Below the pieces are notes generated by a model. The model did no database searches. It was not told where the DNA came from and saw nothing but the letters and a program-made list of their open reading frames with translations. This document shows, piece by piece, positions 3,199 through 58,145 of a stretch of 64,000 bases of DNA. The DNA is from a virus, in IMG/VR virus record IMGVR_UViG_3300034069_000619, positions 1-64,000 of that record. One strand, 5' to 3'. The position numbers and the translations under genes are program-made. Position 1 is the stretch's first letter. The number at the start of each line of letters is the position of its first letter.

Positions 3199-3275
3199 AG
3201 CAGGATAGAGCAGTCGGGTAGCTCGCGTGGCTCATAACCACGAGGCCGCAGGTTCAAATCCTGCTCCTGCCACCA
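3199..3275 (+). tRNA. tRNA-Met(CAU), initiator-like, CCA encoded
   Basis: Hand-folded cloverleaf. Acceptor AGCAGGA/TCCTGCC with an A1xC72 mismatch. D arm GAGC-AGTCGGGTA-GCTC. Anticodon arm CGTGG-CTCATAA-CCACG. Variable loop AGGCC. T arm GCAGG-TTCAAAT-CCTGC. Discriminator A, then CCA. Confidence 0.85.
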
Positions 3276-9653: not shown

Positions 9654-11096
9654 ATGACCGAAACCACGATCGCGCTCGACCGCGCGTCTGTTCGCCGATC
9701 GGACGACGACGGCCACATGCACGTCAGCTTGACGCCGATCAGCAAGGCCAACGTTTGCGGCTATCTCGGCCGCGAAATCCCTGACTGGCAGAGCCTCGGG
9801 CTCAAGGCTGACCGCATCTACAAGATGTGGCGCCATCCCGAGGAGCTTGAGAAAGCCGCCGATAGTTTCAACGGCAAGCCCCTGCTGTTCGGCCACAACC
9901 CGGTCAGCGCCGCCAAGCACGACCATGACCGCACGGTCGGCGCCGTGTCCGGTGTGCAGTGGAAGCCGCCGTTTCTCATGGCCACGCTTGACATCTGGCC
10001 GAGCAAAGCCATCGACGCCATCGACAGTGGCGAACATGAGGAACTGTCCTCGGCCTACGCCTACAAAGCCGATATGGCCGCCGGCCGCACGCCTGATGGT
10101 GAGCAGTACGACGGCATCATGCGCAACATCCGCGGCAACCACGTCGCGATGGTCAAGGAAGGTCGCGCGGGCTCAGACGTCCGCGTCCTAGACGCCAAAC
10201 CACGTTCCCTCAAGGAGACGTTTCCCATGCCGAAGACGGCTGTACTATCCCGCACGGCCGACGTCGCGCGTGGCGCACTCATGGCCTACGCCAAGCCTCG
10301 GCTGGCGCAGGACGCCAAGATCGACCTTCAGCCCATTCTCAAGGGAGTGACGGCGAAGAACCTCAAGGCGAAGGCCAGCACGATCGCCAAGGCGTTTGAC
10401 GCTGCTGTCCGTCCGAAGCTCGGCCAAGATGCCGACATGGACCAGGCCGATGTTCAGGCCGTCGTCGAGGAAGTCGCCGAACTGATGAAGTCGGAGAGCG
10501 ACGACATCGCCGCTGCTGTGGCCGATCCCGATCCCGCCGCTGCCCCCGACCCTGATGGCAACGATGCCCCCGACATGGACGCCCTCATGTCCTACCTCGG
10601 CGGCGTCCTGACCGACGAGCAGATGGCCAAGGTCAAGTCGATGATGGGCAAGGGCGACGATGACGACGGCGCCGAAGACCGCCGCAAGAAGGGCCTGCCG
10701 GCTGCTCCGAGCGCCCAGGACTCCGACAAGGACAAGGTCCCCGTGATCACCAAGCCAGCCATGGATGCTGCCATCGCACAGGCCCGCAAGGATGCGGCTA
10801 CCGACGCGATGAAGCAGGCCAACGCCATTCGCGACGCCGAGCGCTTCGTCCGTCCCTACGTCGGTGAGATCGCCATGGCCTGCGACAGCGCCGAGGCCGT
10901 CCACCGTGCCGCGCTCGACATTCTCAAGGTGAAACACGAGGGCAAGCACCCCGATGCCTTGGCCGATCTCGTCGAGGTTCATGGGCAGGCGATCAAGGCC
11001 AAGGCCGAGCCCCGCCGGCATCTCGCTCAGGACGCTGCCCCCTCGGGCATCACCTACGACGCCAAGTCGTTCCCGAACTCCAGCCGACTGAAGTGA
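9654..11096 (+). CDS. DUF2213-like prohead protease/scaffold protein
   Basis: N-terminal region (GKPLLFGHNPVSA...GNHVAMVKEGRAG) matches the DUF2213 pattern. The Ala/Asp/Lys-rich C-terminal half looks scaffold-like. Confidence 0.7.
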   Translation: MTETTIALDRASVRRSDDDGHMHVSLTPISKANVCGYLGREIPDWQSLGLKADRIYKMWRHPEELEKAADSFNGKPLLFGHNPVSAAKHDHDRTVGAVSGVQWKPPFLMATLDIWPSKAIDAIDSGEHEELSSAYAYKADMAAGRTPDGEQYDGIMRNIRGNHVAMVKEGRAGSDVRVLDAKPRSLKETFPMPKTAVLSRTADVARGALMAYAKPRLAQDAKIDLQPILKGVTAKNLKAKASTIAKAFDAAVRPKLGQDADMDQADVQAVVEEVAELMKSESDDIAAAVADPDPAAAPDPDGNDAPDMDALMSYLGGVLTDEQMAKVKSMMGKGDDDDGAEDRRKKGLPAAPSAQDSDKDKVPVITKPAMDAAIAQARKDAATDAMKQANAIRDAERFVRPYVGEIAMACDSAEAVHRAALDILKVKHEGKHPDALADLVEVHGQAIKAKAEPRRHLAQDAAPSGITYDAKSFPNSSRLK

Positions 11097-38080: not shown

Positions 38081-38557
38081 ATGCGAGTCCCCATGACATC
38101 TCCATCGCCAACCGCCCTCGCAAATGCTCGCGAGTCGCAGGCCTTCTGGACGCCGTTTGTGCGCCTGCCTGACGTGCATGTCTGGGCGCTGATCGGAAAT
38201 GAGGCCGGGGAGGCAAGCTTCCTAGCGCACCCCGTTGGCGACCATGGTGAAGCGTTCGGCTGCTTCCAGTGGCACCTCCCGCGCATTCTCGACATGGTCA
38301 AGGGCTGCGGAATCGACGTCAGGACGGCATCACACGGCCAGCAGATCGCCGCCGCTCATTGGGAGATGACCAAGGGCTCGTACCGCAAGGTCTGGCCGGC
38401 GCTGATGGCAACCACGACCGTCGAAGAGGCCGTCACCGTCCTCGTGCGGGACTTTGAGCGCAGCGCCAACCAGGCGCGAGACATTCCCCGCCGCGTTGCT
38501 CTCGCGCAGACATGGCGCGACCTGCTGACGAGCGGCAAACCCCGGACATCGCCATGA
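38081..38557 (+). CDS. lysozyme-like (phage tail lysozyme-type) protein
   Basis: GNEAGEASFLAHPVGDHGEAFGCFQWHLPRILDM aligns by eye with the tape-measure internal domain. Confidence 0.55.
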   Translation: MRVPMTSPSPTALANARESQAFWTPFVRLPDVHVWALIGNEAGEASFLAHPVGDHGEAFGCFQWHLPRILDMVKGCGIDVRTASHGQQIAAAHWEMTKGSYRKVWPALMATTTVEEAVTVLVRDFERSANQARDIPRRVALAQTWRDLLTSGKPRTSP

Positions 38558-39336
38558 CCTTGTCTCTCCCTACCCTCAAGTGGGTGGCTTCTCCCAACGT
38601 GTCCGACCGCTCGGTGCCGGTCGACCTCATCGTGATCCACGACTGCGAAGGCAGCTACGCGGGTGCCGTGTCGTGGTTCAGCCAAGCGAGGTCGCAGGTC
38701 TCTGCCCACCTCGTCATCAAGGAGGACGGGACGGAAGCGACGCAGATGGCCGACTTCCGACGCAAGGCGTGGCATGCCATGGCGTTCAACTCGCGTTCCA
38801 TCGGCATTGAGATGGGCGGCATGGCCTCTCGCGGCTTCCCTGACGCGGAATGGCAGACCGCCGCCAATATCACGGCTTATCTGCTCCGCGCTTATGGGCT
38901 GCCTTGCCAGTGGGCTCACGATGGCAAAGGGCCGGGTTTCACCTCGCACTTTGATCTCGGGCAGGCCGGCGGTGGGCACAGCGATCCCACCACGGATCCG
39001 AAGGTCTGGGCCGGCTTCGTCGCCAAGGTGCAGGCTGCCTATGCCGCGGCAAGCGGGCCGCTGCCCTCGTGGGGCGTCGGCCTCCCGGCATCACCCATTC
39101 CCAACGCCAAGCCCGTCCCGGTGTCCCCGCCTGCCCCGACGCTCTCGGTCTCAGACGTGCAGCGGATCCTCAACGCCGCCGGATACCGACCGACGCTCGC
39201 TGTGGACGGCCAGCTTGGCCCCAAGACCAAGGACGCCCTCGCCCGGTTCCAGCAGTCCCGCGGCATCCATGTCGACGGTGCCCTGTCCGTCCTCACGCTC
39301 AACGCCCTCTCCTCTTTCTCAGCCAGCAAGGCCTGA
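38554..39336 (+). CDS. endolysin: N-acetylmuramoyl-L-alanine amidase plus PG_binding_1 domain
   Basis: Motifs IVIHDCEG...SAHLVI...AWHA...NSRSIGIE...HSD are Amidase_2-like. C-terminal LAVDGQLGPKTKDALARFQ is PG-binding-like. Confidence 0.85.
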   Translation: MTLSLPTLKWVASPNVSDRSVPVDLIVIHDCEGSYAGAVSWFSQARSQVSAHLVIKEDGTEATQMADFRRKAWHAMAFNSRSIGIEMGGMASRGFPDAEWQTAANITAYLLRAYGLPCQWAHDGKGPGFTSHFDLGQAGGGHSDPTTDPKVWAGFVAKVQAAYAAASGPLPSWGVGLPASPIPNAKPVPVSPPAPTLSVSDVQRILNAAGYRPTLAVDGQLGPKTKDALARFQQSRGIHVDGALSVLTLNALSSFSASKA

Positions 39337-39337
39337 T

Positions 39338-39838
39338 ATGCTTCGCCTCGCCACCATTCTCGGCGCCCTCGCGTGGGGCGCCATCCTAATCACCGCCGCG
39401 CTCGCCGACACGGCTTCGACTACGACCGTAGCGGCATCGCCGTGGGTCACCCTCGCAGCGCCCTACGTCAATCTGATCGTCGAAGCCCTTGTCGGGGCAG
39501 CCATCACCTGGGGGGTGGCGCTGTTCCAGCGGTGGACCGGTCGCAAGATCCAGGAGAGCTTGGTCAACTCCATCAAGAGCGCCGCGGCAACCGAAGCTGG
39601 CGTCGCGATGGCCAAGGCCGAGAACAACTTGGCTGGGCGATCCATCGACGTGAAGTCGCCCATCGTAGCTCAAGGCGTCACGGCGCTCCAGGGACGCATC
39701 CCCGACATCCTGAAGAATGCGGGCGCCACCCCAGAGGCACTATCGGCCATCGTAGCGGGTGAGATCGGCAAGCTCCAGGCCTCTGCCCCGCCGGCTGCCC
39801 CCGTCGTCATCACCACTGGCATCGGGGGGCAGGCATGA
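39338..39838 (+). CDS. membrane protein (holin or i-spanin candidate)
   Basis: In-frame ATG 39338 two nt after the endolysin stop. Hydrophobic helices MLRLATILGALAWGAILITAALA and VEALVGAAITWGVALF. Confidence 0.55.
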   Translation: MLRLATILGALAWGAILITAALADTASTTTVAASPWVTLAAPYVNLIVEALVGAAITWGVALFQRWTGRKIQESLVNSIKSAAATEAGVAMAKAENNLAGRSIDVKSPIVAQGVTALQGRIPDILKNAGATPEALSAIVAGEIGKLQASAPPAAPVVITTGIGGQA

Positions 39839-40077
39839 ACGTCGCGGCTGGGGGAGAACTCGCCTTCGACCTCATGAACAAGGCGTCCATCGGTATCGGT
39901 GGCGACCTCGTGGTGCTCTACAAGCTCTACCGCGACCTCACGTCCGGCAAGATCAAGTGGAACGCGATCTCTGACGAGCAGGCCGACGCCATCGGGCGGA
40001 TCATCAACGTGGCCGCTGTGACGGTGAAGGATCCAGAGGCCTTCGCGACGGCCAAGACCTTCGTGAGGTCACTCTGA
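39835..40077 (+). CDS. hypothetical lysis-module protein
   Basis: 80-aa ORF with 4-nt overlap coupling. Confidence 0.45.
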   Translation: MNVAAGGELAFDLMNKASIGIGGDLVVLYKLYRDLTSGKIKWNAISDEQADAIGRIINVAAVTVKDPEAFATAKTFVRSL

Positions 40078-40367
40078 TGTCCGACATCGACCTCAACGAG
40101 ATTGAGGCCGGCCTGAAGGCGCTCTCGGGGGTGGACTGGGTGTCGGCTCTAAAAGCCTTCCGATCAGCCGACCTGGCCGGCGAGATCACCGCCGCCGAGG
40201 ATGTCGCCTCCATCATCGCGGTGTTCCTGCCCGAAGCTGTCTACGCCCGTGACGCACTCGTGGTGCTTGGCTTCCTCGTCGAAGCGCAGCGCGACGGCCT
40301 GATCCGACCCGCAGTTCCAGAAGACGAAGCCATGGCCCGTGTCGAGCGGGAGCATGGCGGAAGGTAG
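40077..40367 (+). CDS. hypothetical lysis-module protein
   Basis: 96-aa ORF; its ATG overlaps the upstream TGA. Confidence 0.45.
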   Translation: MSDIDLNEIEAGLKALSGVDWVSALKAFRSADLAGEITAAEDVASIIAVFLPEAVYARDALVVLGFLVEAQRDGLIRPAVPEDEAMARVEREHGGR

Positions 40368-40440
40368 CTGTGCGGGCCGGGCGCTACGCCGGCTCCATCT
40401 GACTCCAGATGGCGTGGCGGTTTCGAACCGCCGAGCTACA
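40364..40440 (+). ncRNA. degenerate tRNA-like cloverleaf (not a canonical tRNA)
   Basis: 6-bp acceptor-like pairing GTAGCT/AGCTAC. D-like hairpin CCGG-N8-CCGG. Anticodon-like hairpin CCATCT-GACTCC-AGATGG. T-like hairpin GGCGG-TTTCGAA-CCGCC. Total length 77 nt. Confidence 0.3.
40372..40393 (+). repeat. 22-nt leader box GCGGGCCGGGCGCTACGCCGGC (copy B)
   Basis: 21 of 22 nt identical to 18603-18624. Lies in the 183-nt leader before the lipoprotein gene. Confidence 0.5.
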
Positions 40441-40550
40441 CGACATCCACCGGTCAAGCCGGACTATTGCCACGCTCATTCCCGATCCGCCGCGTCTGCT
40501 TTCCGCGGTGCCGCACAGACCCCTGTTATCACAGAAGATGGAAATTCACC

Positions 40551-40892
40551 ATGACTAAGCTCGTCATCCTCGGCGCGGCGTGCCTCGCTGCGTCCGTGCT
40601 CTCCGGCTGTGCCCAGATCGAGAGCGGCTTCAACTCTGCCGCCAACTTCATCGACCAGCCCAACGTCCAGCAGGCGGTGGCTACGATCAAGACCGTCAGC
40701 ACTGCGCTGGTTTGCGACGTGGCCGCCGGCTCCTCGCTCGCCAAGAGCATCGAAGCTCAGGCCGGCGCCCATCAGGGCGTGACCAACCTCATCGACGTGT
40801 CCTCCACGGCTGTCTGTGCCGCCCTCCAGGGCAAGGTGGTTGCTGGCGTTACCGAGGCCAACGTGCCTGCTGTGACGGCGGTGAGCCAGTGA
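40551..40892 (+). CDS. lipoprotein
   Basis: In-frame ATG 40551. Signal plus lipobox MTKLVILGAACLAASVLSGC. Confidence 0.65.
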   Translation: MTKLVILGAACLAASVLSGCAQIESGFNSAANFIDQPNVQQAVATIKTVSTALVCDVAAGSSLAKSIEAQAGAHQGVTNLIDVSSTAVCAALQGKVVAGVTEANVPAVTAVSQ

Positions 40893-41056
40893 TCCCTGCC
40901 ATTATCGCCATGTGTCTCAGCAGCGCTCCTAGCCAATGTGAGAGCCATTCGGTTCGCGTCGAGGCTCGCGCTTGCCGCGTCGCCCCGATCCGCGCCGAGG
41001 CGCCCATCTCCGGCGAATGGCGACCCGTGATCGTCAGCATCCGGTGCCGTCCGTAA
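40889..41056 (+). CDS. possible 55-aa Cys-rich protein
   Basis: GTGA overlap with the lipoprotein stop. Hand-counted GC3 about 75%. Four Cys residues. Confidence 0.35.
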   Translation: MIPAIIAMCLSSAPSQCESHSVRVEARACRVAPIRAEAPISGEWRPVIVSIRCRP

Positions 41057-41160: not shown

Positions 41161-41661
41161 ATGCTTGCTAAAGGGTTACCTCATGCGGAGGATGACGCTG
41201 CCGTGATCAAAGCGCTGTTCTTGGCTACGCTAGCTGCGCTCGTGGTTTGTCCGATGGTGGCGTGGGCAGATACCCCTGCCCTGCCGGACGCCGGCAGTCT
41301 GGTCCGCGATGGTGGACCCTGGGGGCTGGCAAGCCTGTTCGCGAGTGTGATCGGCATCCTCTGGTACAAGATCGGCACCCTACAGGCCACGATCGCGACC
41401 CTGCAAGACAAGCGGGCCACCGAGAATGCGGAGTGGGCTGGAAAGTTTGCCGCAACGGCGACAACAGCCGCCAATGAGATCCGGCTAACGGCCGAAAAGC
41501 TGGAAGACCAAGGTCGGCTCCTCCAGGCCGTGACCGAGACCGCCAAGGGCTGGCCGACCGCGATCCAGTCCATTCTATCTTCGCTTGATCGCAATGGCGA
41601 GCGAATGGTGAACCTCCCCGAAGCCTTGCGCTCCATCATCCAGCAGTCGAGGGGGACCTGA
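41161..41661 (+). CDS. membrane protein with coiled-coil tail
   Basis: 166 aa. Hydrophobic segments IKALFLATLAALVVCPMVAWA and WGLASLFASVIGILWY, then a helical region. Confidence 0.55.
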   Translation: MLAKGLPHAEDDAAVIKALFLATLAALVVCPMVAWADTPALPDAGSLVRDGGPWGLASLFASVIGILWYKIGTLQATIATLQDKRATENAEWAGKFAATATTAANEIRLTAEKLEDQGRLLQAVTETAKGWPTAIQSILSSLDRNGERMVNLPEALRSIIQQSRGT

Positions 41662-41963
41662 TGGTGGTCCGCGAACTCCTCGCCAAAACCGCGGCCTACT
41701 TCAGTGCATATGCCATGCCTGCTGCGGTCGTGATCCACGACAAGCGCGTTCACGACGCGCGAGAGAAGGCACAGTTCGCTCAGGTCGAGTTGGAGCGAGC
41801 TGTCCGCATGTCTCGGCGAGCACTGAGCCGCACATCATCTCCAGAGGAGATCGAACGACAAGTCGTTGAGATGACCAAGGCGAAAACCCGCATCGACCAG
41901 ATCGTGAAGACCCACGACGAGGACCCTGACTCCGACATCCTCAGAGCTATGGACGCGCCGTGA
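41661..41963 (+). CDS. hypothetical helical protein
   Basis: 100 aa. Its ATG shares a base with the upstream TGA. Confidence 0.5.
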   Translation: MVVRELLAKTAAYFSAYAMPAAVVIHDKRVHDAREKAQFAQVELERAVRMSRRALSRTSSPEEIERQVVEMTKAKTRIDQIVKTHDEDPDSDILRAMDAP

Positions 41964-42505
41964 GCACTCTGATTCTCCGTATCTTCGTCAGGTCCGCATT
42001 CATCTTCGCGTTGATCGCCGGTCCTAGTTTCGCCATCGTCAAAACCGGCAACGTGCCGCTTTGGCTCAACGCCTTGGGTTTTACCGCCATCGCTGTCGCG
42101 ACTGGCGTCATTTTCCTCAACAGCAAGCGCACGGCCAAGTTCTTCACGCGCGACGTGGTGAGCCAGGCGCAAGTCCACGCGCTGTCCATTCAAAGCGTGA
42201 TGATGGCGGTCATCCTCGGCGCGGCCTCCGGTATCCACTGGCGGACGCTCGGGCATGGCTCCCCCCTGATCGATAGCTCCGTCACGGTCGTCGCTCGCGT
42301 GCTCTACGATTTCGGTACCATCGGCTTCTTTCTGACCGCAGGGCAGTTTGAGGAAAATCTGTCCTGGGGCCGCATCGGCAAGGTAGCTATCATTCTCACC
42401 ATGATCCTCGCTGTTTTCATCACGGTCATGCTCACCGATCAGGTTGGGATCCTAACCCAGGAACCTGGTACTGTGATCGCCGTCCCTCAGGGGGTTCGCC
42501 CATGA
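41960..42505 (+). CDS. polytopic membrane protein
   Basis: 181 aa with about 5 hydrophobic helices. GTGA overlap with the upstream gene. Confidence 0.6.
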   Translation: MSTLILRIFVRSAFIFALIAGPSFAIVKTGNVPLWLNALGFTAIAVATGVIFLNSKRTAKFFTRDVVSQAQVHALSIQSVMMAVILGAASGIHWRTLGHGSPLIDSSVTVVARVLYDFGTIGFFLTAGQFEENLSWGRIGKVAIILTMILAVFITVMLTDQVGILTQEPGTVIAVPQGVRP

Positions 42506-43368
42506 TCACGGATGACGAAGACCGCGACGGCGAGCGCTCGTTCGGGGAATACAGCCGCCTCGGCGGCAACATTTCCGGGTTCACGGCCATCACATGCGGC
42601 GTGCTGATCGGCATCGGCGTGTTCGCCCTGCCCCGCCTTGAACTATTCGCTCTCCCGATTTTTCGCACTTACCAGATCCCGCCGAACAGCGTGACCCGGC
42701 TGGGTCAGAACCTTTGCTGGACCCGACTAGGCGAGAAAGCCCGAAACCCACCTCTGACCGACATCGACATCACCGTCGATTACATCTCGGAACGAACCGG
42801 GAAGCTCGCCCATCAACCGACCCCTGGGCTGTTTTTTGAGGCCACTGGGGAAGATTTCACAACCGATGACGTCTCTGAGGTTGGGCCATTCTGGAAGCGG
42901 GTCTGCATCAAACTGTCGGCTCGCATCCGCCCGACACAGCCGGTGCAGGTTCGGCAGATAGCCTATTTCGGGAGCATCACGACGCTTTACAGCGTGCCTG
43001 TCAGTTTGCCCACGATCGTTTTCCCGGCAGGGGCAGGAAGCGTTTTTGCCGTTCACGATCACGCACCATCCCCGGACGCCGTCGCCGGCCCTCCTCCGAC
43101 GCCTAACCGTAAGCCAGCCCATCAGCGCAACGACATCGACGTGACGCCCATGCTGCAAGACATTCAGAGCCTTAAGGGCATCACGGATCCTGACCTCGCG
43201 GCTCGTGTCGAAGCCAGGGTGCCGCAGGAACTGCATGACAGGCTCGACGAGTGGATGGCGCAGAACCATGTGTTCAATCGGTCAGCCGCCGTCCGCCAAC
43301 TGCTCGACGAAGCCCTCGACGCCGAGGACAAGGCGGCAGCAGAGCCTTTTGAGCCGGAGGGACGTTGA
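42502..43368 (+). CDS. membrane-anchored protein with C-terminal ribbon-helix-helix domain
   Basis: TM helix ISGFTAITCGVLIGIGVFALP, a Pro-rich linker, and C-terminal RVEARVPQELHDRLDEWMAQNHVFNRSAAVRQLLDEAL. ATGA overlap with the upstream gene. Confidence 0.6.
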   Translation: MITDDEDRDGERSFGEYSRLGGNISGFTAITCGVLIGIGVFALPRLELFALPIFRTYQIPPNSVTRLGQNLCWTRLGEKARNPPLTDIDITVDYISERTGKLAHQPTPGLFFEATGEDFTTDDVSEVGPFWKRVCIKLSARIRPTQPVQVRQIAYFGSITTLYSVPVSLPTIVFPAGAGSVFAVHDHAPSPDAVAGPPPTPNRKPAHQRNDIDVTPMLQDIQSLKGITDPDLAARVEARVPQELHDRLDEWMAQNHVFNRSAAVRQLLDEALDAEDKAAAEPFEPEGR

Positions 43369-43774
43369 GGGGTGCGGCGCGTTGTGGTAGGGAAGATGGG
43401 CGCGGCGGCGTGGATGGACACGCTCCGATATGTAGGGCTTAGGGCATCAGTCGGTGGCTCCTATGGCGAAAGCTAAGCTGGCGACAGCGTGAGCAAATCC
43501 ACCTACCTAGAGCCGGTATCAAGCCCGGCCCGCGCATCAGTTCAGCCCCGGTGGGCAACGAGGTAGGCCGCCCGCTCTTACCAACCCGACCATACGGGGG
43601 ACGTTAACGGAGCGCATGAAACAACATGGTGCCGACCCGAGCTGTGCACGGCGAAGGACGGTGCGGCCATCAAATTCATGGCGTGACACGGTGATTTCCT
43701 GTCAGCCGTAGGACGCCTTCGGGCGGATCGCATTGCGGGGAGACCGACAGGCCCCGCCGCCATGGACCTTCTCA

Positions 43775-43810
43775 GCCCCGGCGCCTCACGGTTCCGGGGC
43801 TTTTTCGTTT
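43775..43810 (+). terminator. intrinsic terminator
   Basis: Stem GCCCCGG/CCGGGGC with a 12-nt loop, followed by TTTTTCGTTT on the + strand. Confidence 0.6.
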
Positions 43811-44103
43811 CGCCGCAGCACCAACGCGAGTACCCTAGGCGCCCTGTCCGGCGCCGGCCTCTGCGACCGCCAATCTGGCATGGCCCCGATGTCGGTGCCC
43901 TCGCAGCGCTGGCACTGCCAGACGCGGGACTTGGCGATGGCGGGAAACGGGGTGTCGTCCGGCAGGCCCAGGTCGGCCCACGGCACCGCCTGAGCCGCGG
44001 CGCACCGGTTGCAGGACAGCAAAACTGCGTCGATGCGATTGACATCACGCAAAAATGCGATCGTCGGCGGCGAAGGCGGCGCGGGCTTCGGATCCATGAC
44101 CAT
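43786..44103 (-). CDS. CxxC...CxxC zinc-ribbon-like small protein
   Basis: LSCNRCAAAQ...WQCQRCEG. High GC3 through the Cys-containing core. Last gene of the leftward operon. Confidence 0.5.
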   Translation of the reverse strand: MVMDPKPAPPSPPTIAFLRDVNRIDAVLLSCNRCAAAQAVPWADLGLPDDTPFPAIAKSRVWQCQRCEGTDIGAMPDWRSQRPAPDRAPRVLALVLRRNEKAPEP

Positions 44104-44445: not shown

Positions 44446-44645
44446 GGGGTGGGCTCCGAGAAATCTGTGACGCCATGCACCTTGATCATGTCATTGATGG
44501 CACTCTTGAGCCTTTCCCAATCCATGGCCATGATTGCCACTTTCGGCTTTCCAGAGACGGCGATGGCATTCTGGTCCGCAGTTTTCATACAAATTCGCAG
44601 CCACGCCGCTGCGTCACGTGGCTTGTTATTGTCGTAGGTCGGCAT
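44442..44645 (-). CDS. hypothetical early protein
   Basis: ATG 44645 shares a base with the upstream TGA. AT-richer than neighbours. Confidence 0.5.
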   Translation of the reverse strand: MPTYDNNKPRDAAAWLRICMKTADQNAIAVSGKPKVAIMAMDWERLKSAINDMIKVHGVTDFSEPTP

Positions 44646-44854
44646 CAATCCCAATCCTCATTCCCGGCATCGTCATCGGCATCCAATGCAATCGCCAGAC
44701 GCTGCTCTTGTGTGAATGTCGACCACAGCCCTTTGGTGCGCCCGCCTACGTGGTTTCGCCAGTCGTGAACCTTCCCAGCCTCGTCAAACTCAGGGCTCTC
44801 CAGCCAGTCAGGAGTGAACGGGGCAAGCCTTCTCTCGAAATCCGTCATCATCAT
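44645..44854 (-). CDS. hypothetical acidic early protein
   Basis: Internal ATG 44854 preceded by GGAGAG. Confidence 0.5.
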   Translation of the reverse strand: MMMTDFERRLAPFTPDWLESPEFDEAGKVHDWRNHVGGRTKGLWSTFTQEQRLAIALDADDDAGNEDWD

Positions 44855-44879
44855 CTCTCCATGCCCCTCACGGGGCGCA

Positions 44880-45107
44880 TCACAAAAGCCGCTCGTCGAT
44901 ATCGTCGCCATTCCACCGCGCCAGGGGCTGGTGCTCGTCGCCATCGGCGAAGATCACGATGTCGTCCGGCCCGATATCGCGCTGGGCGCGGCGGTCCCAT
45001 CGACGGTGAATCATCCGCGGGCCGCCCCAGATGCGAAAGGCGCTCCAGTAGCGGTCGTCCGTGAACCCGACATAGTGGACGGTGCGGGGAGCCTCATCCC
45101 CCATCAT
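44880..45107 (-). CDS. conserved hypothetical phage protein
   Basis: 75 aa. The VHYVGFTDDRYWSAFRIWGGP pattern recurs in alphaproteobacterial phages (from memory). Confidence 0.5.
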   Translation of the reverse strand: MMGDEAPRTVHYVGFTDDRYWSAFRIWGGPRMIHRRWDRRAQRDIGPDDIVIFADGDEHQPLARWNGDDIDERLL

Positions 45108-48187: not shown

Positions 48188-49204
48188 TCAGGATGGTTTG
48201 CCACCCTTTTTCGGGAGCTTGTCCATCCCTGAGCGAGAAAGCCGCTTCTGATCCGCGGCCTTCGTGTAGCGCTCAATCTCTTTGAGCGTGACGTGACCGG
48301 TGATCGCGCCAATTTCGTGCGGTGTGGCGCCGGCATCCGCCAACCGGCTCGCTGCGGCTTTTCGAAGCCCGTGCGACGTGCACTCGGCTGGCAATCCTGC
48401 CTTGTGGATAACCCCGTTGATCCAGTTGCTGTAGCCGGCAGGGCTGAAGGGCTTGCCCGCTTCCGTCGCGATGATGGTGGTGCCGCGACGCGGTGCCTTG
48501 TCGAGAATGGCAGCAAGGTCGTCGTGGATCGGCACGTCGAGGCGGGCACCCGTCTTCCGCTGGGCCACACTGATTCGGTCGCCATGGATATGCAGCCACG
48601 TCATGCGATGCACATCGGATGCCCGCTGCGCCGTGTAGAGGTGCAGCGCGAACGCCAGCCGTTCCCGTGATCCGATCGGCCAGAAGGCTTCAAAGGCCGC
48701 AATCTGCCCGTCAGTCCATGTGTGGACCTCACCAATCTTGCTCAGGGCGATGCCGGCCGTTGGGTCAGATGGTGCCATGCCGATATCGACAGCGAACCTC
48801 ATCAGCGTCCGCAGCCGTTTCAGGAAAGAGTGAGCCGCGCCTGGCGTCGGCTCCATCTCCTGAATGATCGTTTTCACAGCCTCCCTCGGCAGTGTCGCCA
48901 CAGCCCGATGTCCATGCTGCGCCGCGAACTTCTCCAGTTTGGAGCGGTAGGCGCGGCGCGTATCGGGGGCCAGCCGACTGAAATCCAAGCTGGCGAAATA
49001 GCGAGAGAGAAGGTGGTTGAACGTGCCCTGCGTCGGCGTCTTCGCCTCGACCTCTTTGGCCCTCAGCGTCTCTGTCGCTTCGGCATAGGCGGCCATGAAG
49101 TCAGCCTCACCCGGCACTCCCGGCAAAGAAACTCGCACGTCTCCCCTGCGGTAGTAGTGTCGGCGCTTGCCGTGCCGGTCCACGAAGGTGTGCACGTAGG
49201 GCAT
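48188..49204 (-). CDS. int: tyrosine integrase
   Basis: C-terminal HGLRKAAASRLADAGATPHEIGAITGH...EIERYT catalytic-domain motifs. The MPYVHTFVDRHGKRRHYYRR start follows the xis stop. Confidence 0.9.
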   Translation of the reverse strand: MPYVHTFVDRHGKRRHYYRRGDVRVSLPGVPGEADFMAAYAEATETLRAKEVEAKTPTQGTFNHLLSRYFASLDFSRLAPDTRRAYRSKLEKFAAQHGHRAVATLPREAVKTIIQEMEPTPGAAHSFLKRLRTLMRFAVDIGMAPSDPTAGIALSKIGEVHTWTDGQIAAFEAFWPIGSRERLAFALHLYTAQRASDVHRMTWLHIHGDRISVAQRKTGARLDVPIHDDLAAILDKAPRRGTTIIATEAGKPFSPAGYSNWINGVIHKAGLPAECTSHGLRKAAASRLADAGATPHEIGAITGHVTLKEIERYTKAADQKRLSRSGMDKLPKKGGKPS

Positions 49205-49206
49205 GG

Positions 49207-49485
49207 TCAGCGGCGCACCACGTCGTCCCATCCCGGCAGCTCCGGCATTTTGATCGGCATATCGCCTTGCCGGGGCAGCGACTTGAAGGCAAGCGTCAGC
49301 TCATCGACGTCCCAGAGCAGGCGAGTCCGCAGGGCGCGAGGGCGGGGCATCGTGCCTTCATCCACAAGCTCGCGGAACATGGTTTCGCTGATGCCGACGA
49401 ACAGGGCGGCTTCGGGGGCGCTCAAGGCGTGTCGGGGCGCGAGCCTAGCGACAGCATGGATGTTGTCTCGCACTGCCCTACCCAT
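49207..49485 (-). CDS. xis: excisionase / AlpA-like HTH protein
   Basis: Internal ATG 49485. LSAPEAALFVGISETMFRELVDEGTMPRP HTH motif, immediately upstream of int. Confidence 0.7.
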   Translation of the reverse strand: MGRAVRDNIHAVARLAPRHALSAPEAALFVGISETMFRELVDEGTMPRPRALRTRLLWDVDELTLAFKSLPRQGDMPIKMPELPGWDDVVRR

Positions 49486-56684: not shown

Positions 56685-57302
56685 TTAGCTAATTCGTTTG
56701 GACACCTTGCGAACGGTGCGCCTCGGTGCAATCCATGTGACGAAGGCGGCGCTTTCGACCTGCTGTTCGCGCATCGTGTCAGCGGTGGCGCTTTCGAGAT
56801 CAAAGAGACCGGCCGCCCGGCTGTGAAATGGCTTCTTTATGACCACCTGGCCGTCTGCCAGCCACAGCACGCAAAGCTCACCGACCATGTCCTCTGTGAC
56901 CGGCCCGCGCTCGTCGTCGTAATAGATCAACCAGCCGTCCTCAGCGACGCCGCGCATGCTTGTCCCCCGCACCTCCACGGCAACGGTTTTGTCACCGCTG
57001 TCCGGCGGTCGGAGTGCCCAACCGAGTTCGCCGTCTGAAGCTGCATAGGATACGCCGCCGTTAGAACCCGCGCCAACGAGACCCACGATTGAAACTTCTT
57101 GCGGAGTCTCGATCACGATGGACGGATCTACCCCGAAGGCACGCGCAGCGTTGGCGATAGAAGCCTCATTCAACTTCCTGTCGCCACGCTCAAGTTTTAT
57201 GTAGCCGCTCCGCGAAATTCCCATTTCCATAGCGGCCCTCTCGAGGGTCCAGCCACGGTCTTTGCGGAGGTGACGAAGGTTGTTGCCCATGACGGGTGAC
57301 AT
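56685..57302 (-). CDS. CI-like repressor (XRE HTH plus S24 LexA-type peptidase)
   Basis: LRHLRKDRGWTLERAAMEMGISRSGYIKLERG HTH motif. C-terminal GTSM...K S24-like domain. ATG 57290 is an alternative start. Confidence 0.85.
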   Translation of the reverse strand: MSPVMGNNLRHLRKDRGWTLERAAMEMGISRSGYIKLERGDRKLNEASIANAARAFGVDPSIVIETPQEVSIVGLVGAGSNGGVSYAASDGELGWALRPPDSGDKTVAVEVRGTSMRGVAEDGWLIYYDDERGPVTEDMVGELCVLWLADGQVVIKKPFHSRAAGLFDLESATADTMREQQVESAAFVTWIAPRRTVRKVSKRIS

Positions 57303-57374
57303 GCATGCCGATCTTTTTGTTGTCGTTCCCCAAGTTGGGCTTGCAATGTTGCCCATTCCGGGTAACCTATGGGC
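57281..57374. promoter_or_regulatory. cI/cro divergent control region with repeated TGTTGCCCAT boxes
   Basis: TGTTGCCCAT at 57281-90 and 57347-56. Near-palindrome GTTGCCC-N5-GGGTAAC at 57349-67. GCCCAT-N12-ATGGGC also present. Confidence 0.5.
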
Positions 57375-57375
57375 C

Positions 57376-57600
57376 ATGCAGCTCAAGTCCTTCATCCAGG
57401 CCAGCGGCCTCCCCGACCAGCACTTCGCTGAAAAGCTCGGCGTTTCGCTGTCGGGACTGCGCAAGTGGAAAGCCCGCAATCGGGAGCCAGATGCGGCCAC
57501 GATCGCCCGCATTGAAGCTTTGACTGACGGCAAAGTCAGTCTAGCCGACTGGGCAATGCCGAAGCCGAAGCCCGTCCAGAAGGTGGGAGCGGCGGCGTGA
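57376..57600 (+). CDS. Cro-like HTH regulator
   Basis: ATG 57376. FAEKLGVSLSGLRKWKARNREP HTH motif. Divergent from the repressor. Confidence 0.7.
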   Translation: MQLKSFIQASGLPDQHFAEKLGVSLSGLRKWKARNREPDAATIARIEALTDGKVSLADWAMPKPKPVQKVGAAA

Positions 57601-58145
57601 GCGTCGTATATTTCGTTCAGCCGGTAGATGGCGGTCCCGTGCGCGTCGGTACATCTCAGGACGAGATCGGTCGCAGCCTCGCGATCGGTAATTGGCATCC
57701 TCACGGCGTTGAAATTGTAGCGACACTGCCAGGATCTTTCGCCCGTGAGGCGATGATCCATCGGATTTTCGCTGGACAGGCTCTGGGCCGTGATTGGTTC
57801 AAAGCATCTCCCTTGGTCTGGCGCGTCATGCTCGACGCGATCGACAGGCGCATCGACTGGCTCCCTGCTGAACCAACAAAGCAGGAGTGGGTCGAGGTGC
57901 GTAAAAATATGGGTCCAAGGATCAAGGCCGCGTTCGGCGGCCCGTCCAAGATGGCCAAGATCGCCGGATACAGCGCGGGGCATGTGAGCTTCGCTTGCAC
58001 TCCAACCAACTGGAACCCGCCCGCTGGCGTCTATGCAGCCCTTGCGCTGCAGGAAGCTGATCTGCGCGGCGAACTCCCTTCGTATCTCTCTGACCTCTGG
58101 CAAGAGCGGGCAGTGCCCCGCAAAACCAATCGGAGCGTCGCGTGA
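57597..58145 (+). CDS. T5orf172/GIY-YIG-superfamily domain protein
   Basis: VVYFVQPVDGGPVRVGTS...EAMIHRIFAGQALGRDWF pattern. GTGA overlap with the upstream gene. Confidence 0.55.
   Translation: MSVVYFVQPVDGGPVRVGTSQDEIGRSLAIGNWHPHGVEIVATLPGSFAREAMIHRIFAGQALGRDWFKASPLVWRVMLDAIDRRIDWLPAEPTKQEWVEVRKNMGPRIKAAFGGPSKMAKIAGYSAGHVSFACTPTNWNPPAGVYAALALQEADLRGELPSYLSDLWQERAVPRKTNRSVA

Follow-up and report, generated by a model that had tools for sequence, protein, structure and literature searches.

The window analyzed here, a 64,000-nt stretch of DNA (positions 1–64,000 of IMG/VR record IMGVR_UViG_3300034069_000619), is a lambdoid-type temperate phage genome and contains, at the distal end of its lysis cassette, four tightly coupled genes that are designated gA, gB, gC, and gD (coordinates refer to the window unless another contig is named):

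41203–41661, + strand: gA, 152 amino acids (aa), from its most likely start, GTG 41203; the open reading frame (ORF) originally predicted spans 41161–41661
41661–41963, + strand: gB, 100 aa
41960–42505, + strand: gC, 181 aa
42502–43368, + strand: gD, 288 aa

An original prediction, made from the letters of the sequence, had described four coupled ORFs on the + strand, and both their coordinates and the three start/stop overlaps (TGATG at 41659–41663, GTGA at 41960–41963, and ATGA at 42502–42505) were confirmed in the sequence. The ratio of nonsynonymous to synonymous substitution rates (dN/dS), calculated against the homologous block of contig L001 (73% nucleotide identity), was 0.14 for gA, 0.04 for gB, 0.15 for gC, and 0.10 for gD, with dS of 1.2–1.6; purifying selection acts on all four genes. 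Because of these low ratios and the presence of same-order homologues in other contigs, the four ORFs are considered to be genes and not chance ORFs of high-GC DNA. The first gene had been given as 166 aa. It is a real gene with two hydrophobic segments, as stated, but its translation probably starts at GTG 41203 instead of ATG 41161. GGAGGA occurs at 41187–41192, upstream of this GTG, the 14-codon leader has a GC content at third codon positions (GC3) of 0.43 vs. 0.75 in the gene, and a database protein that is 99% identical to gA (P0014) has a length of 152 aa. The leader EDDEAV, seemingly conserved among gA relatives, is the in-frame reading of the Shine-Dalgarno sequence. With the start at GTG 41203, the first hydrophobic segment would be a standard signal peptide ending AWA/D.

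The four proteins contained two (gA), no (gB), five (gC), and one N-terminal (gD) hydrophobic segments, the same counts as had been given before, and gA, gC, and gD carried predicted transmembrane (TM) segments in agreement with their earlier description as membrane proteins. No family had been recognized for the first three proteins or for most of gD, and Pfam, PHROGs, NCBIfam, and PADLOC likewise yielded no family match apart from a C-terminal signal in gD; a Pfam search with family members of gA and gC also gave no match, and none of eight proteins tested matched PADLOC with E < 0.06. A Gtr-like role in O-antigen conversion was rejected, as it had no support from Pfam. gA is predicted to consist of the signal peptide, a periplasmic stretch of ~20 aa, one TM segment, the juxtamembrane motif LQDKRA, which was invariant in the family, and a coiled coil of ~90 aa. 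The coiled coil is predicted to be cytoplasmic because it follows a signal peptide, a stop-transfer TM segment, and then a K/R-rich segment. gB is soluble and all-helical, contains a conserved HD..VHDA motif, and is cytoplasmic by prediction; its 100-aa type and an 81-aa type found in other loci were related (hhalign probability 84%, E 8e-6). gC is a predicted inner-membrane protein with a conserved loop (WR..G.P.W..NSD), and its AlphaFold2 (AF2) model contained five TM-length helices (predicted local distance difference test, pLDDT, 71), for which Foldseek found no structural neighbor in the PDB. Among 5.8 billion clusters, 18 relatives of gA, 12 of gC, and 12 of gD were identified.

The fourth protein, gD, has a composite architecture:

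42577–42651, + strand: TM segment, aa 26–50, a helix in the AF2 model
42661–43023, + strand: immunoglobulin (Ig)-like beta-sandwich with Cys72 and Cys135, aa 54–174, all-beta in the AF2 model (pLDDT 82–91)
43057–43197, + strand: A.AGP.P motif and Pro-rich linker, aa 186–232
43198–43314, + strand: ribbon-helix-helix (RHH)-like domain, aa 233–271
43315–43365, + strand: conserved acidic tail LDAEDKAAAEPFEPEGR, 17 aa

The AF2 model of gD, built from a 7-sequence alignment, contained a disordered Pro-rich region at aa 188–238 and C-terminal helices within aa 242–280 (pLDDT about 75). In the RHH region, the monomer model formed helices at 242–255 and 260–271, and the putative strand at 233–240 was of low confidence and not modeled as a strand. 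Residues 228–280 matched PHROG 4738 ("transcriptional repressor", E 9e-8) and PHROG 18767 (E 1.2e-5), more weakly the NCBIfam models YlcI_YnfO_N (0.0026) and NikR (0.019), and Pfam RHH_1 with E 0.0047 and 17.3 bits, under the cut-off of 20.5. A profile search of PDB sequences retrieved no solved RHH relative. The C-terminal RHH fold originally proposed is thus a candidate assignment, with profile matches in PHROG and, weakly, in NCBIfam, a Pfam score under the cut-off, and helices only in the AF2 monomer. The domain shares the strand-helix-helix pattern of ~45 aa with the RHH repressors (Arc and Mnt of P22 immI, CopG, PHROG 4738, and YlcI/YnfO); unlike these, it is C-terminal on membrane proteins, is preceded by a Pro-rich linker and followed by an acidic 17-aa tail, is predicted to be extracytoplasmic, and in the window is net acidic and below the Pfam cut-off.

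The net charge of the RHH core was −3 in the window and up to +6 in relatives, and the charge of the tail was −3 to −4 throughout (−4 in the window), except for −1 in the divergent P0069. With such charges, binding to DNA cannot be taken for granted, and the RHH module may be a dimerization or ligand-binding device. The 17-residue tail LDAEDKAAAEPFEPEGR was identical among proteins that were 33–45% identical elsewhere, and degenerate (LD.EDRDALGPYDP..R) in the most distant members. The last 24 codons of the window and of L004 differed by 8 synonymous changes and 1 non-synonymous change, and this synonymous excess indicates that selection acts on the tail peptide. At the other end of gD, an acidic tail lies ahead of the TM segment: RHH-bearing gD proteins contained an acidic motif (..DDEDR..RSFGEYSRLGG; residues 1–23, 42502–42570) that was not present in stand-alone relatives with a TM segment and beta-sandwich. 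This motif may be a cytoplasmic docking peptide for gA/gB or a topology determinant.

An exhaustive profile search with gD retrieved 41 proteins in 1.84 billion, including five full-length proteins, a few fusions of gC to the RHH domain (P0044 and P0069), and ~30 stand-alone TM + beta-sandwich proteins of 150–190 aa. Foldseek matches of gD to Kir (inward-rectifier potassium) channels were rejected as a generic likeness of the "TM helix + Ig-like sandwich" type (TM-score ≤ 0.5); other matches were generic Ig-like, fibronectin type III, and FlaF folds, and those in BFVD were unnamed phage proteins of 140–150 aa.

The gene set was found in nine distinct metagenomic phage loci, namely the window and the following (upstream genes first, then the module; numbers are lengths in aa):

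L007: window-like cassette; four genes as in the window
L001: HNH, Phage_lysozyme, 32, 107 (weak Phage_holin_10), 130; gA 146, gB 99, gC 181, gD 287
L002: from Phage_lysozyme+PG_binding_1 to a 187-aa GTA_holin_3TM protein (26.6 bits, above cut-off); gA 166, gB 100, gC 176, gD 291
L004: 210, 183; gA 155, gB 81, 267-aa gC-RHH fusion
L008: P2-like gpU/tail X prophage beside argS, with lysozyme, 202; gA 171, gB 81, gC 190, RHH absent
L010: baseplate-wedge myovirus; gA 158, gB 81, 297-aa gC-RHH fusion
L011: Glyco_hydro_108, 107; gA 151, gB 81, gC 197, RHH absent
L013: window-like cassette; gA-like 118, gB 85, gC 218, a 168-aa opposite-strand gene, 110-aa RHH remnant

This recurrence bears out the synteny that the original prediction had proposed to search for, as the genes do co-occur elsewhere. 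The gene just upstream of the trio encoded a holin-like or other small cassette protein, and in most of the nine loci the start of gA lay 0–5 nt from, or overlapped, this upstream lysis-cassette gene. The endolysins were unrelated across loci (Amidase_2, Phage_lysozyme with or without PG_binding_1, and Glyco_hydro_108), and the tails were P2-like (gpU/tail X) or contained a baseplate wedge. The gC-RHH fusion proteins had 254–297 aa, and their membrane domain was related to gC (hhalign, A6 vs. A7, E 2.9e-4, colinear over 61–157/59–155). Given this homology between subtypes and an RHH domain that is carried on gD, fused to gC, or absent, gA-gB-gC form the conserved core and the RHH domain is optional. 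In L013 (5821–7333), the gC part ended at the A.AGP.P motif, and the linker, RHH domain, and tail survived as a 110-aa ORF (P0057); the inserted opposite-strand gene seems to have divided a gC-RHH fusion gene in two. P0057 was therefore rejected as a minimal anchored RHH protein, since it represents what is left of the 3' part of a gC-RHH gene interrupted by a minus-strand insertion. A scan with the C-terminal alignment of gD found one IMG/VR locus, and nothing in GTDB representative genomes or metagenomes. The module family is very rare, with tens of sequences among billions, all of them metagenomic.

A further contig, L012 (5220–6468), encoded a 112-aa protein with a TM segment and coiled coil, a 111-aa soluble protein, and then a stand-alone TM + beta-sandwich protein (P0052). 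By eye, the 111-aa protein resembled the 107-aa protein between endolysin and gA in L011 (KYA.DHAPDL motif), and this likeness may point to a larger pool of lysis-cassette parts that can replace one another. A relationship of these 107–111-aa proteins to the 166-aa membrane protein of the lysis cassette in the window was rejected as not significant (E 0.78).

In the window, the module follows a lysis cassette that is preceded by a tail fiber:

38081–41056, + strand: upstream lysis cassette
38081–38557, + strand: Phage_lysozyme2
38512–39336, + strand: Amidase_2+PG_binding_1 endolysin
39338–39838, + strand: 166-aa membrane protein with two hydrophobic segments
between the genes for the 166-aa protein and the lipoprotein, + strand: 80-aa protein, then 96-aa protein
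40551–40892, + strand: lipoprotein
40889–41056, + strand: 55-aa Cys-rich ORF, whose GTG start overlaps the lipoprotein stop as GTGA
43783–43810, + strand: intrinsic-terminator-like hairpin with T run, the sole such site after the operon, conserved in L007 and L004

The 55-aa ORF encodes four Cys and a hydrophobic N-terminal segment, and it also adjoined the lipoprotein gene in L007 (93%), L010, and L013; the lipoprotein and this small secreted protein are probably a coupled pair in the lysis cassette. The module, once placed in a slot equivalent to the lambda b-region, instead closes the lysis cassette at its distal end, and this site is not a separate b-region. No sigma-70-like promoter was found on the + strand from 38 to 45 kb, in a scan for the E. 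coli-type consensus only. With no promoter detected and a single terminator downstream, the four genes are taken as the 3' end of the lysis/late transcription unit, and gA-gD would thus be late genes.

The trio is exchanged independently of its neighbors. The 166-aa, 80-aa, and 96-aa proteins, the lipoprotein, and the Cys-rich protein of the window were 93–97% identical to those of L007, whereas gA, gB, gC, and gD were 27, 32, 31, and 58% identical, respectively; nucleotide similarity stopped at 41208 and returned at 43075. The comparison with L001 gave the mirror pattern, with similarity confined to 41298–43671. These opposite patterns indicate that the trio has been swapped as one unit, regardless of endolysin and holin, which favors a physically interacting set of gA, gB, and gC and argues against an inhibitor specific to one holin.

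The side of the membrane on which the RHH-like domain lies was assessed from the two architectures that carry it. The stand-alone TM + beta-sandwich relatives have basic N-termini (M.RWFWRIY..), with means of 3.0 K/R and 0.5 D/E in the N-flank vs. 1.7 K/R and 1.9 D/E in the C-flank. Exactly two Cys were present in the ectodomain of 25 of 27 stand-alone relatives and of 8 of 9 full-length gD-type proteins, and these features together mark a type II anchored domain that lies in the periplasm and has one disulfide. In gD, the RHH domain is downstream of the two-Cys sandwich without a further TM segment in between. For gC-type proteins, the K/R totals of 18 sequences were 34 for the N-terminus, 8 for L1, 54 for L2, 18 for L3, and 37 for L4, i.e., 125 on the predicted inside and 59 on the outside. 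In the gC-RHH fusions, the RHH domain follows helix 5 of this N-in protein, and models with five helices and with three both place the C-terminus outside, with the caveat that one subfamily of gC-type proteins has only weak hydrophobicity in helices 3 and 4. The location beyond the gD sandwich and the odd number of helices in the fusions are thus two independent indications of an RHH domain outside the cytoplasm, and it is probably periplasmic. A literature phrase search for a periplasmic or membrane-anchored RHH gave no match.

Conserved DNA was also present downstream of gD:

43369–43560, + strand: conserved non-coding blocks, GTGTGGTAG..GATGGGCGCGGCGGCGTGGAT at about 43384–43415 and CCCGCGCATCAGTTCAGCCCCGGTGGGGCA at about 43528–43560

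These blocks were better conserved than the synonymous sites of gD and were found only in loci with an RHH tail of the EPFEPEGR type; a 17-mer of the block was shared by the window and all fetched loci with this tail (5/5) and was absent from the other loci (0/9). The blocks may pair over a long range through GCGCGG/CCGCGC, forming a stem around a variable insert. An identity of this DNA as a phage attachment site (attP), a transfer RNA (tRNA)-like element, or a non-coding RNA was rejected after ARAGORN and Rfam found no match, transfer-messenger RNA included. A 29-mer of the block was absent from 185,579 GTDB genomes, and matches of the 17-mer in IMG/VR were dismissed as chance, except on the L007 contig.

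A GC-rich intergenic element of ~185 nt with multiple hairpins was observed at 40360–40545 of the window (minus orientation) and at 10875–11060 of L001, with 86% identity (nhmmer E about 1e-63). It was located between the genes for the 96-aa protein and the lipoprotein in the window and just after the gD homologue in L001, with unrelated flanking genes. The element holds a T-arm-like GGCGGTTCGAAACCGCC, had a fold z-score of −1.7 to −2.2 and no match in Rfam, and, together with a weak inverted match at 43510–43536, flanks the segment that runs from the lipoprotein gene to gD.

Other features of the genome are as follows:

3199–3275, + strand: tRNA-Met (CAT), just upstream of the terminase region
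4288: large terminase
5619: portal
43786–44103, − strand: 105-aa protein with CxxC...CxxC and a zinc-ribbon look, first gene of the convergent leftward operon
44645–44944, − strand: 99-aa leftward gene, PHROG 9546 "RecX-like filament modulator" (E 1e-11)
48188–49231, − strand: integrase
56685–58103, − strand: cI-like repressor with helix-turn-helix and S24 domains

The 105-aa protein was 83% identical in L007, and conservation of its DNA extended to L004. The 3' end of the gene adjoins the + strand terminator, and this terminator may be bidirectional. The closest match of the portal was Acetobacter phage phiAO1 (41%), a weak hint of an alphaproteobacterial host.

The neighbors of the trio vary, whereas its content and its attachment to lysis genes are constant, and this favors a new envelope module of the lysis cassette. 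We tentatively propose, as a quite possible reading, that gA-gB-gC (with gD in the window) constitute an undescribed, self-contained envelope module of the distal lysis cassette in a small group of related, uncultivated temperate phages, and that this module would be expressed late and act on a membrane step. The operon structure suggests read-through from the endolysin/holin genes to the terminator at 43783–43810, so that the genes would be transcribed late. By sequence prediction, gA, bitopic and N-out after cleavage of its signal peptide, and the polytopic gC would reside in the inner membrane, and gB would bind the cytoplasmic parts of both, the three co-evolving as an interacting unit. 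As its position suggests, the complex might then intervene at the membrane step of lysis, where its most plausible task would be to set or gate the time of permeabilization as a holin accessory or in an antiholin-like way. In phages with gD, this type II protein would probably display its disulfide-containing Ig-like domain, the linker, a dimeric RHH-like domain, and the acidic tail in the periplasm, and the RHH domain and tail could be an optional input or anchoring appendage of gC. The earlier statement that the set does not look like a canonical lysis function is doubtful, as the module was attached to endolysin/holin genes throughout.

Several points weigh against this proposal. The module adjoins lysis genes and has TM segments. 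No similarity to a holin, antiholin, or spanin was detected in sequence or fold (Pfam, PHROG, Foldseek, and BFVD), and gA, gC, and their relatives matched no Pfam or PHROG holin model, whereas neighbors in L002 and L001 did. This lack of homology, like the predicted TM helices and the recurring synteny, is in line with the original prediction. When gD, gA, and gC-type proteins were compared by tblastn with 50,697 GenBank phages, no homologue was retrieved. The trio occurs beside at least four unrelated holin-like genes, which disfavors an antiholin of one specific holin; co-variation with one holin family was not seen, since the same holin-like genes accompany divergent alleles. The ~30%-identical alleles of gA-gC within near-identical phages and the GC3 of gA-gD (0.71–0.76 vs. 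0.80–0.84 in neighbors) would also fit a conflict or accessory cassette. As regards topology, gD itself has a net-acidic N-flank (2.3 K/R vs. 3.8 D/E), so that its orientation is ambiguous by charge, and the C-flank of gC contains ~1.8 K/R per 20 aa.

An extension of the lysis-module proposal, which we consider doubtful, is that the Pro-rich linker, RHH domain, and acidic tail are the first extracytoplasmic RHH device, i.e., a periplasmic sensor of superinfecting DNA or of an envelope ligand that is wired to a lysis-gating gA-gB-gC complex, a T4-RI-like device for inhibiting lysis or sensing superinfection that is made from unrelated parts. The sensor would be a shuffled domain, carried on gD in some phages, joined to gC in others, and lost in the rest. 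For a periplasmic sensor of the nucleic-acid type in lysis control, T4 RI (PMC8385771) comes nearest in concept. The lysis inhibition set of T4 (holin T, periplasmic antiholin RI, and cytoplasmic RIII) is likewise a lysis-linked membrane system with a periplasm-facing sensor domain and a small helical cytoplasmic partner (about 80 aa). On the other hand, it shares no sequence or fold similarity with the module, which also has a five-helix protein and a bitopic coiled-coil protein, and RI is small, secreted, and specific to holin T, whereas the module combines with unrelated holins.

A serious rival, although rather unlikely on balance, is a superinfection-exclusion or abortive-infection cassette of the moron type at a post-lysis hotspot, in which an inner-membrane complex would block or sense phage DNA and the periplasmic RHH domain would optionally bind DNA. 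This would account for the gA-gC alleles of ~30% identity inside flanks of 93–97% identity, for a GC content (0.60 vs. 0.645) and GC3 that are below those of the neighbors, for the independence from holin type, for a place as the last part of the late operon in the window, L004, L008, and L010, and for the predicted periplasmic side of the RHH-like domain. The lambda RexAB, P22 SieA, and HK97 gp15 exclusion systems are also small inner-membrane proteins in accessory positions with allelic diversity. However, such prophage exclusion systems are expressed by the prophage from their own promoters, and the module has no homology to them and is joined to the lysis operon, with no promoter detected and no space for one (gaps of 0–5 nt in most loci). 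PADLOC gave no match, the RHH core in the window is acidic, and constant content beside varying lysis genes is the reverse of a defense hotspot.

The original prediction regarded the operon as a membrane-coupled transcriptional switch. In such a model, gD would be a membrane-tethered transcription factor (N-out/C-in, with a cytoplasmic RHH domain) whose activity is coupled to gA and gC, and its operator might be the block after gD. The RHH profile matches in PHROG, Pfam, and NCBIfam, a beta-strand of the R-x-E-x-R type with a helix B that begins NRS, the net-acidic N-flank of gD, which favors N-out by charge difference, and the association of the non-coding block with the EPFEPEGR-type RHH in 6/6 loci (five fetched plus the window) are consistent with this model. 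A DNA-binding-type domain and a TM segment are also combined in one polypeptide in ToxR and CadC, in which an N-terminal DNA-binding domain lies in the cytoplasm and the sensor in the periplasm. In gD, this order is reversed, and the DNA-binding-like domain lies on the same side as the disulfide-bearing Ig-like domain. The model is improbable, since it requires the less favored topology in both architectures: the stand-alone homologues plainly belong to type II and carry two Cys, and the fusions place the RHH domain after five (or three) helices of an N-in protein. In addition, the RHH domain was dispensable (missing in L008 and L011, disrupted in L013), so that the model would have to explain the role of a domain without which relatives persist, the core and tail in the window have a net charge of −7, and no solved RHH relative was retrieved by sequence search. 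A transcriptional role of the module is thus unlikely.

Finally, the module could be a spanin substitute that performs the last lysis step, disruption of the outer membrane or envelope without Rz/Rz1-type genes, with gD spanning the periplasm; it shares with lambda Rz/Rz1 the usual spanin position distal to holin and endolysin, tight gene overlaps, co-evolving components, and in gD a predicted type II anchor with an extended periplasmic part and long Pro-rich linker, and no lipoprotein gene was seen in the L001, L004, L008, and L011 cassettes, but this is very improbable because gD has a beta-sandwich as its ectodomain and the coiled coil of gA is predicted to lie in the cytoplasm (an i-spanin combines a type II anchor with a coiled coil in the periplasm), gA-gD have no lipobox and the module no outer-membrane lipoprotein partner (an o-spanin is a small outer-membrane lipoprotein with a lipobox, whose gene lies inside or beside that of the i-spanin), RHH/gD is dispensable, the variants without RHH have no part long enough to reach the outer membrane, and the window, L010, and L013 carry a lipoprotein gene too.

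The gA-gD set is real, recurrent, and unannotated, and the function proposed for it follows from context and predicted topology. Five unannotated families or modules were defined, namely gA, gB, gC, the TM + beta-sandwich family, and the RHH-tail module. The phage lysis cassette is considered well catalogued, with holin, endolysin, spanin, and antiholin; if the lysis proposal is true, the module would be a new modular component of it. If the predicted topology is true, the ribbon-helix-helix fold would be in use outside the cytoplasm, and periplasmic sensing of DNA or a ligand in lysis control would become testable outside T4-related systems.

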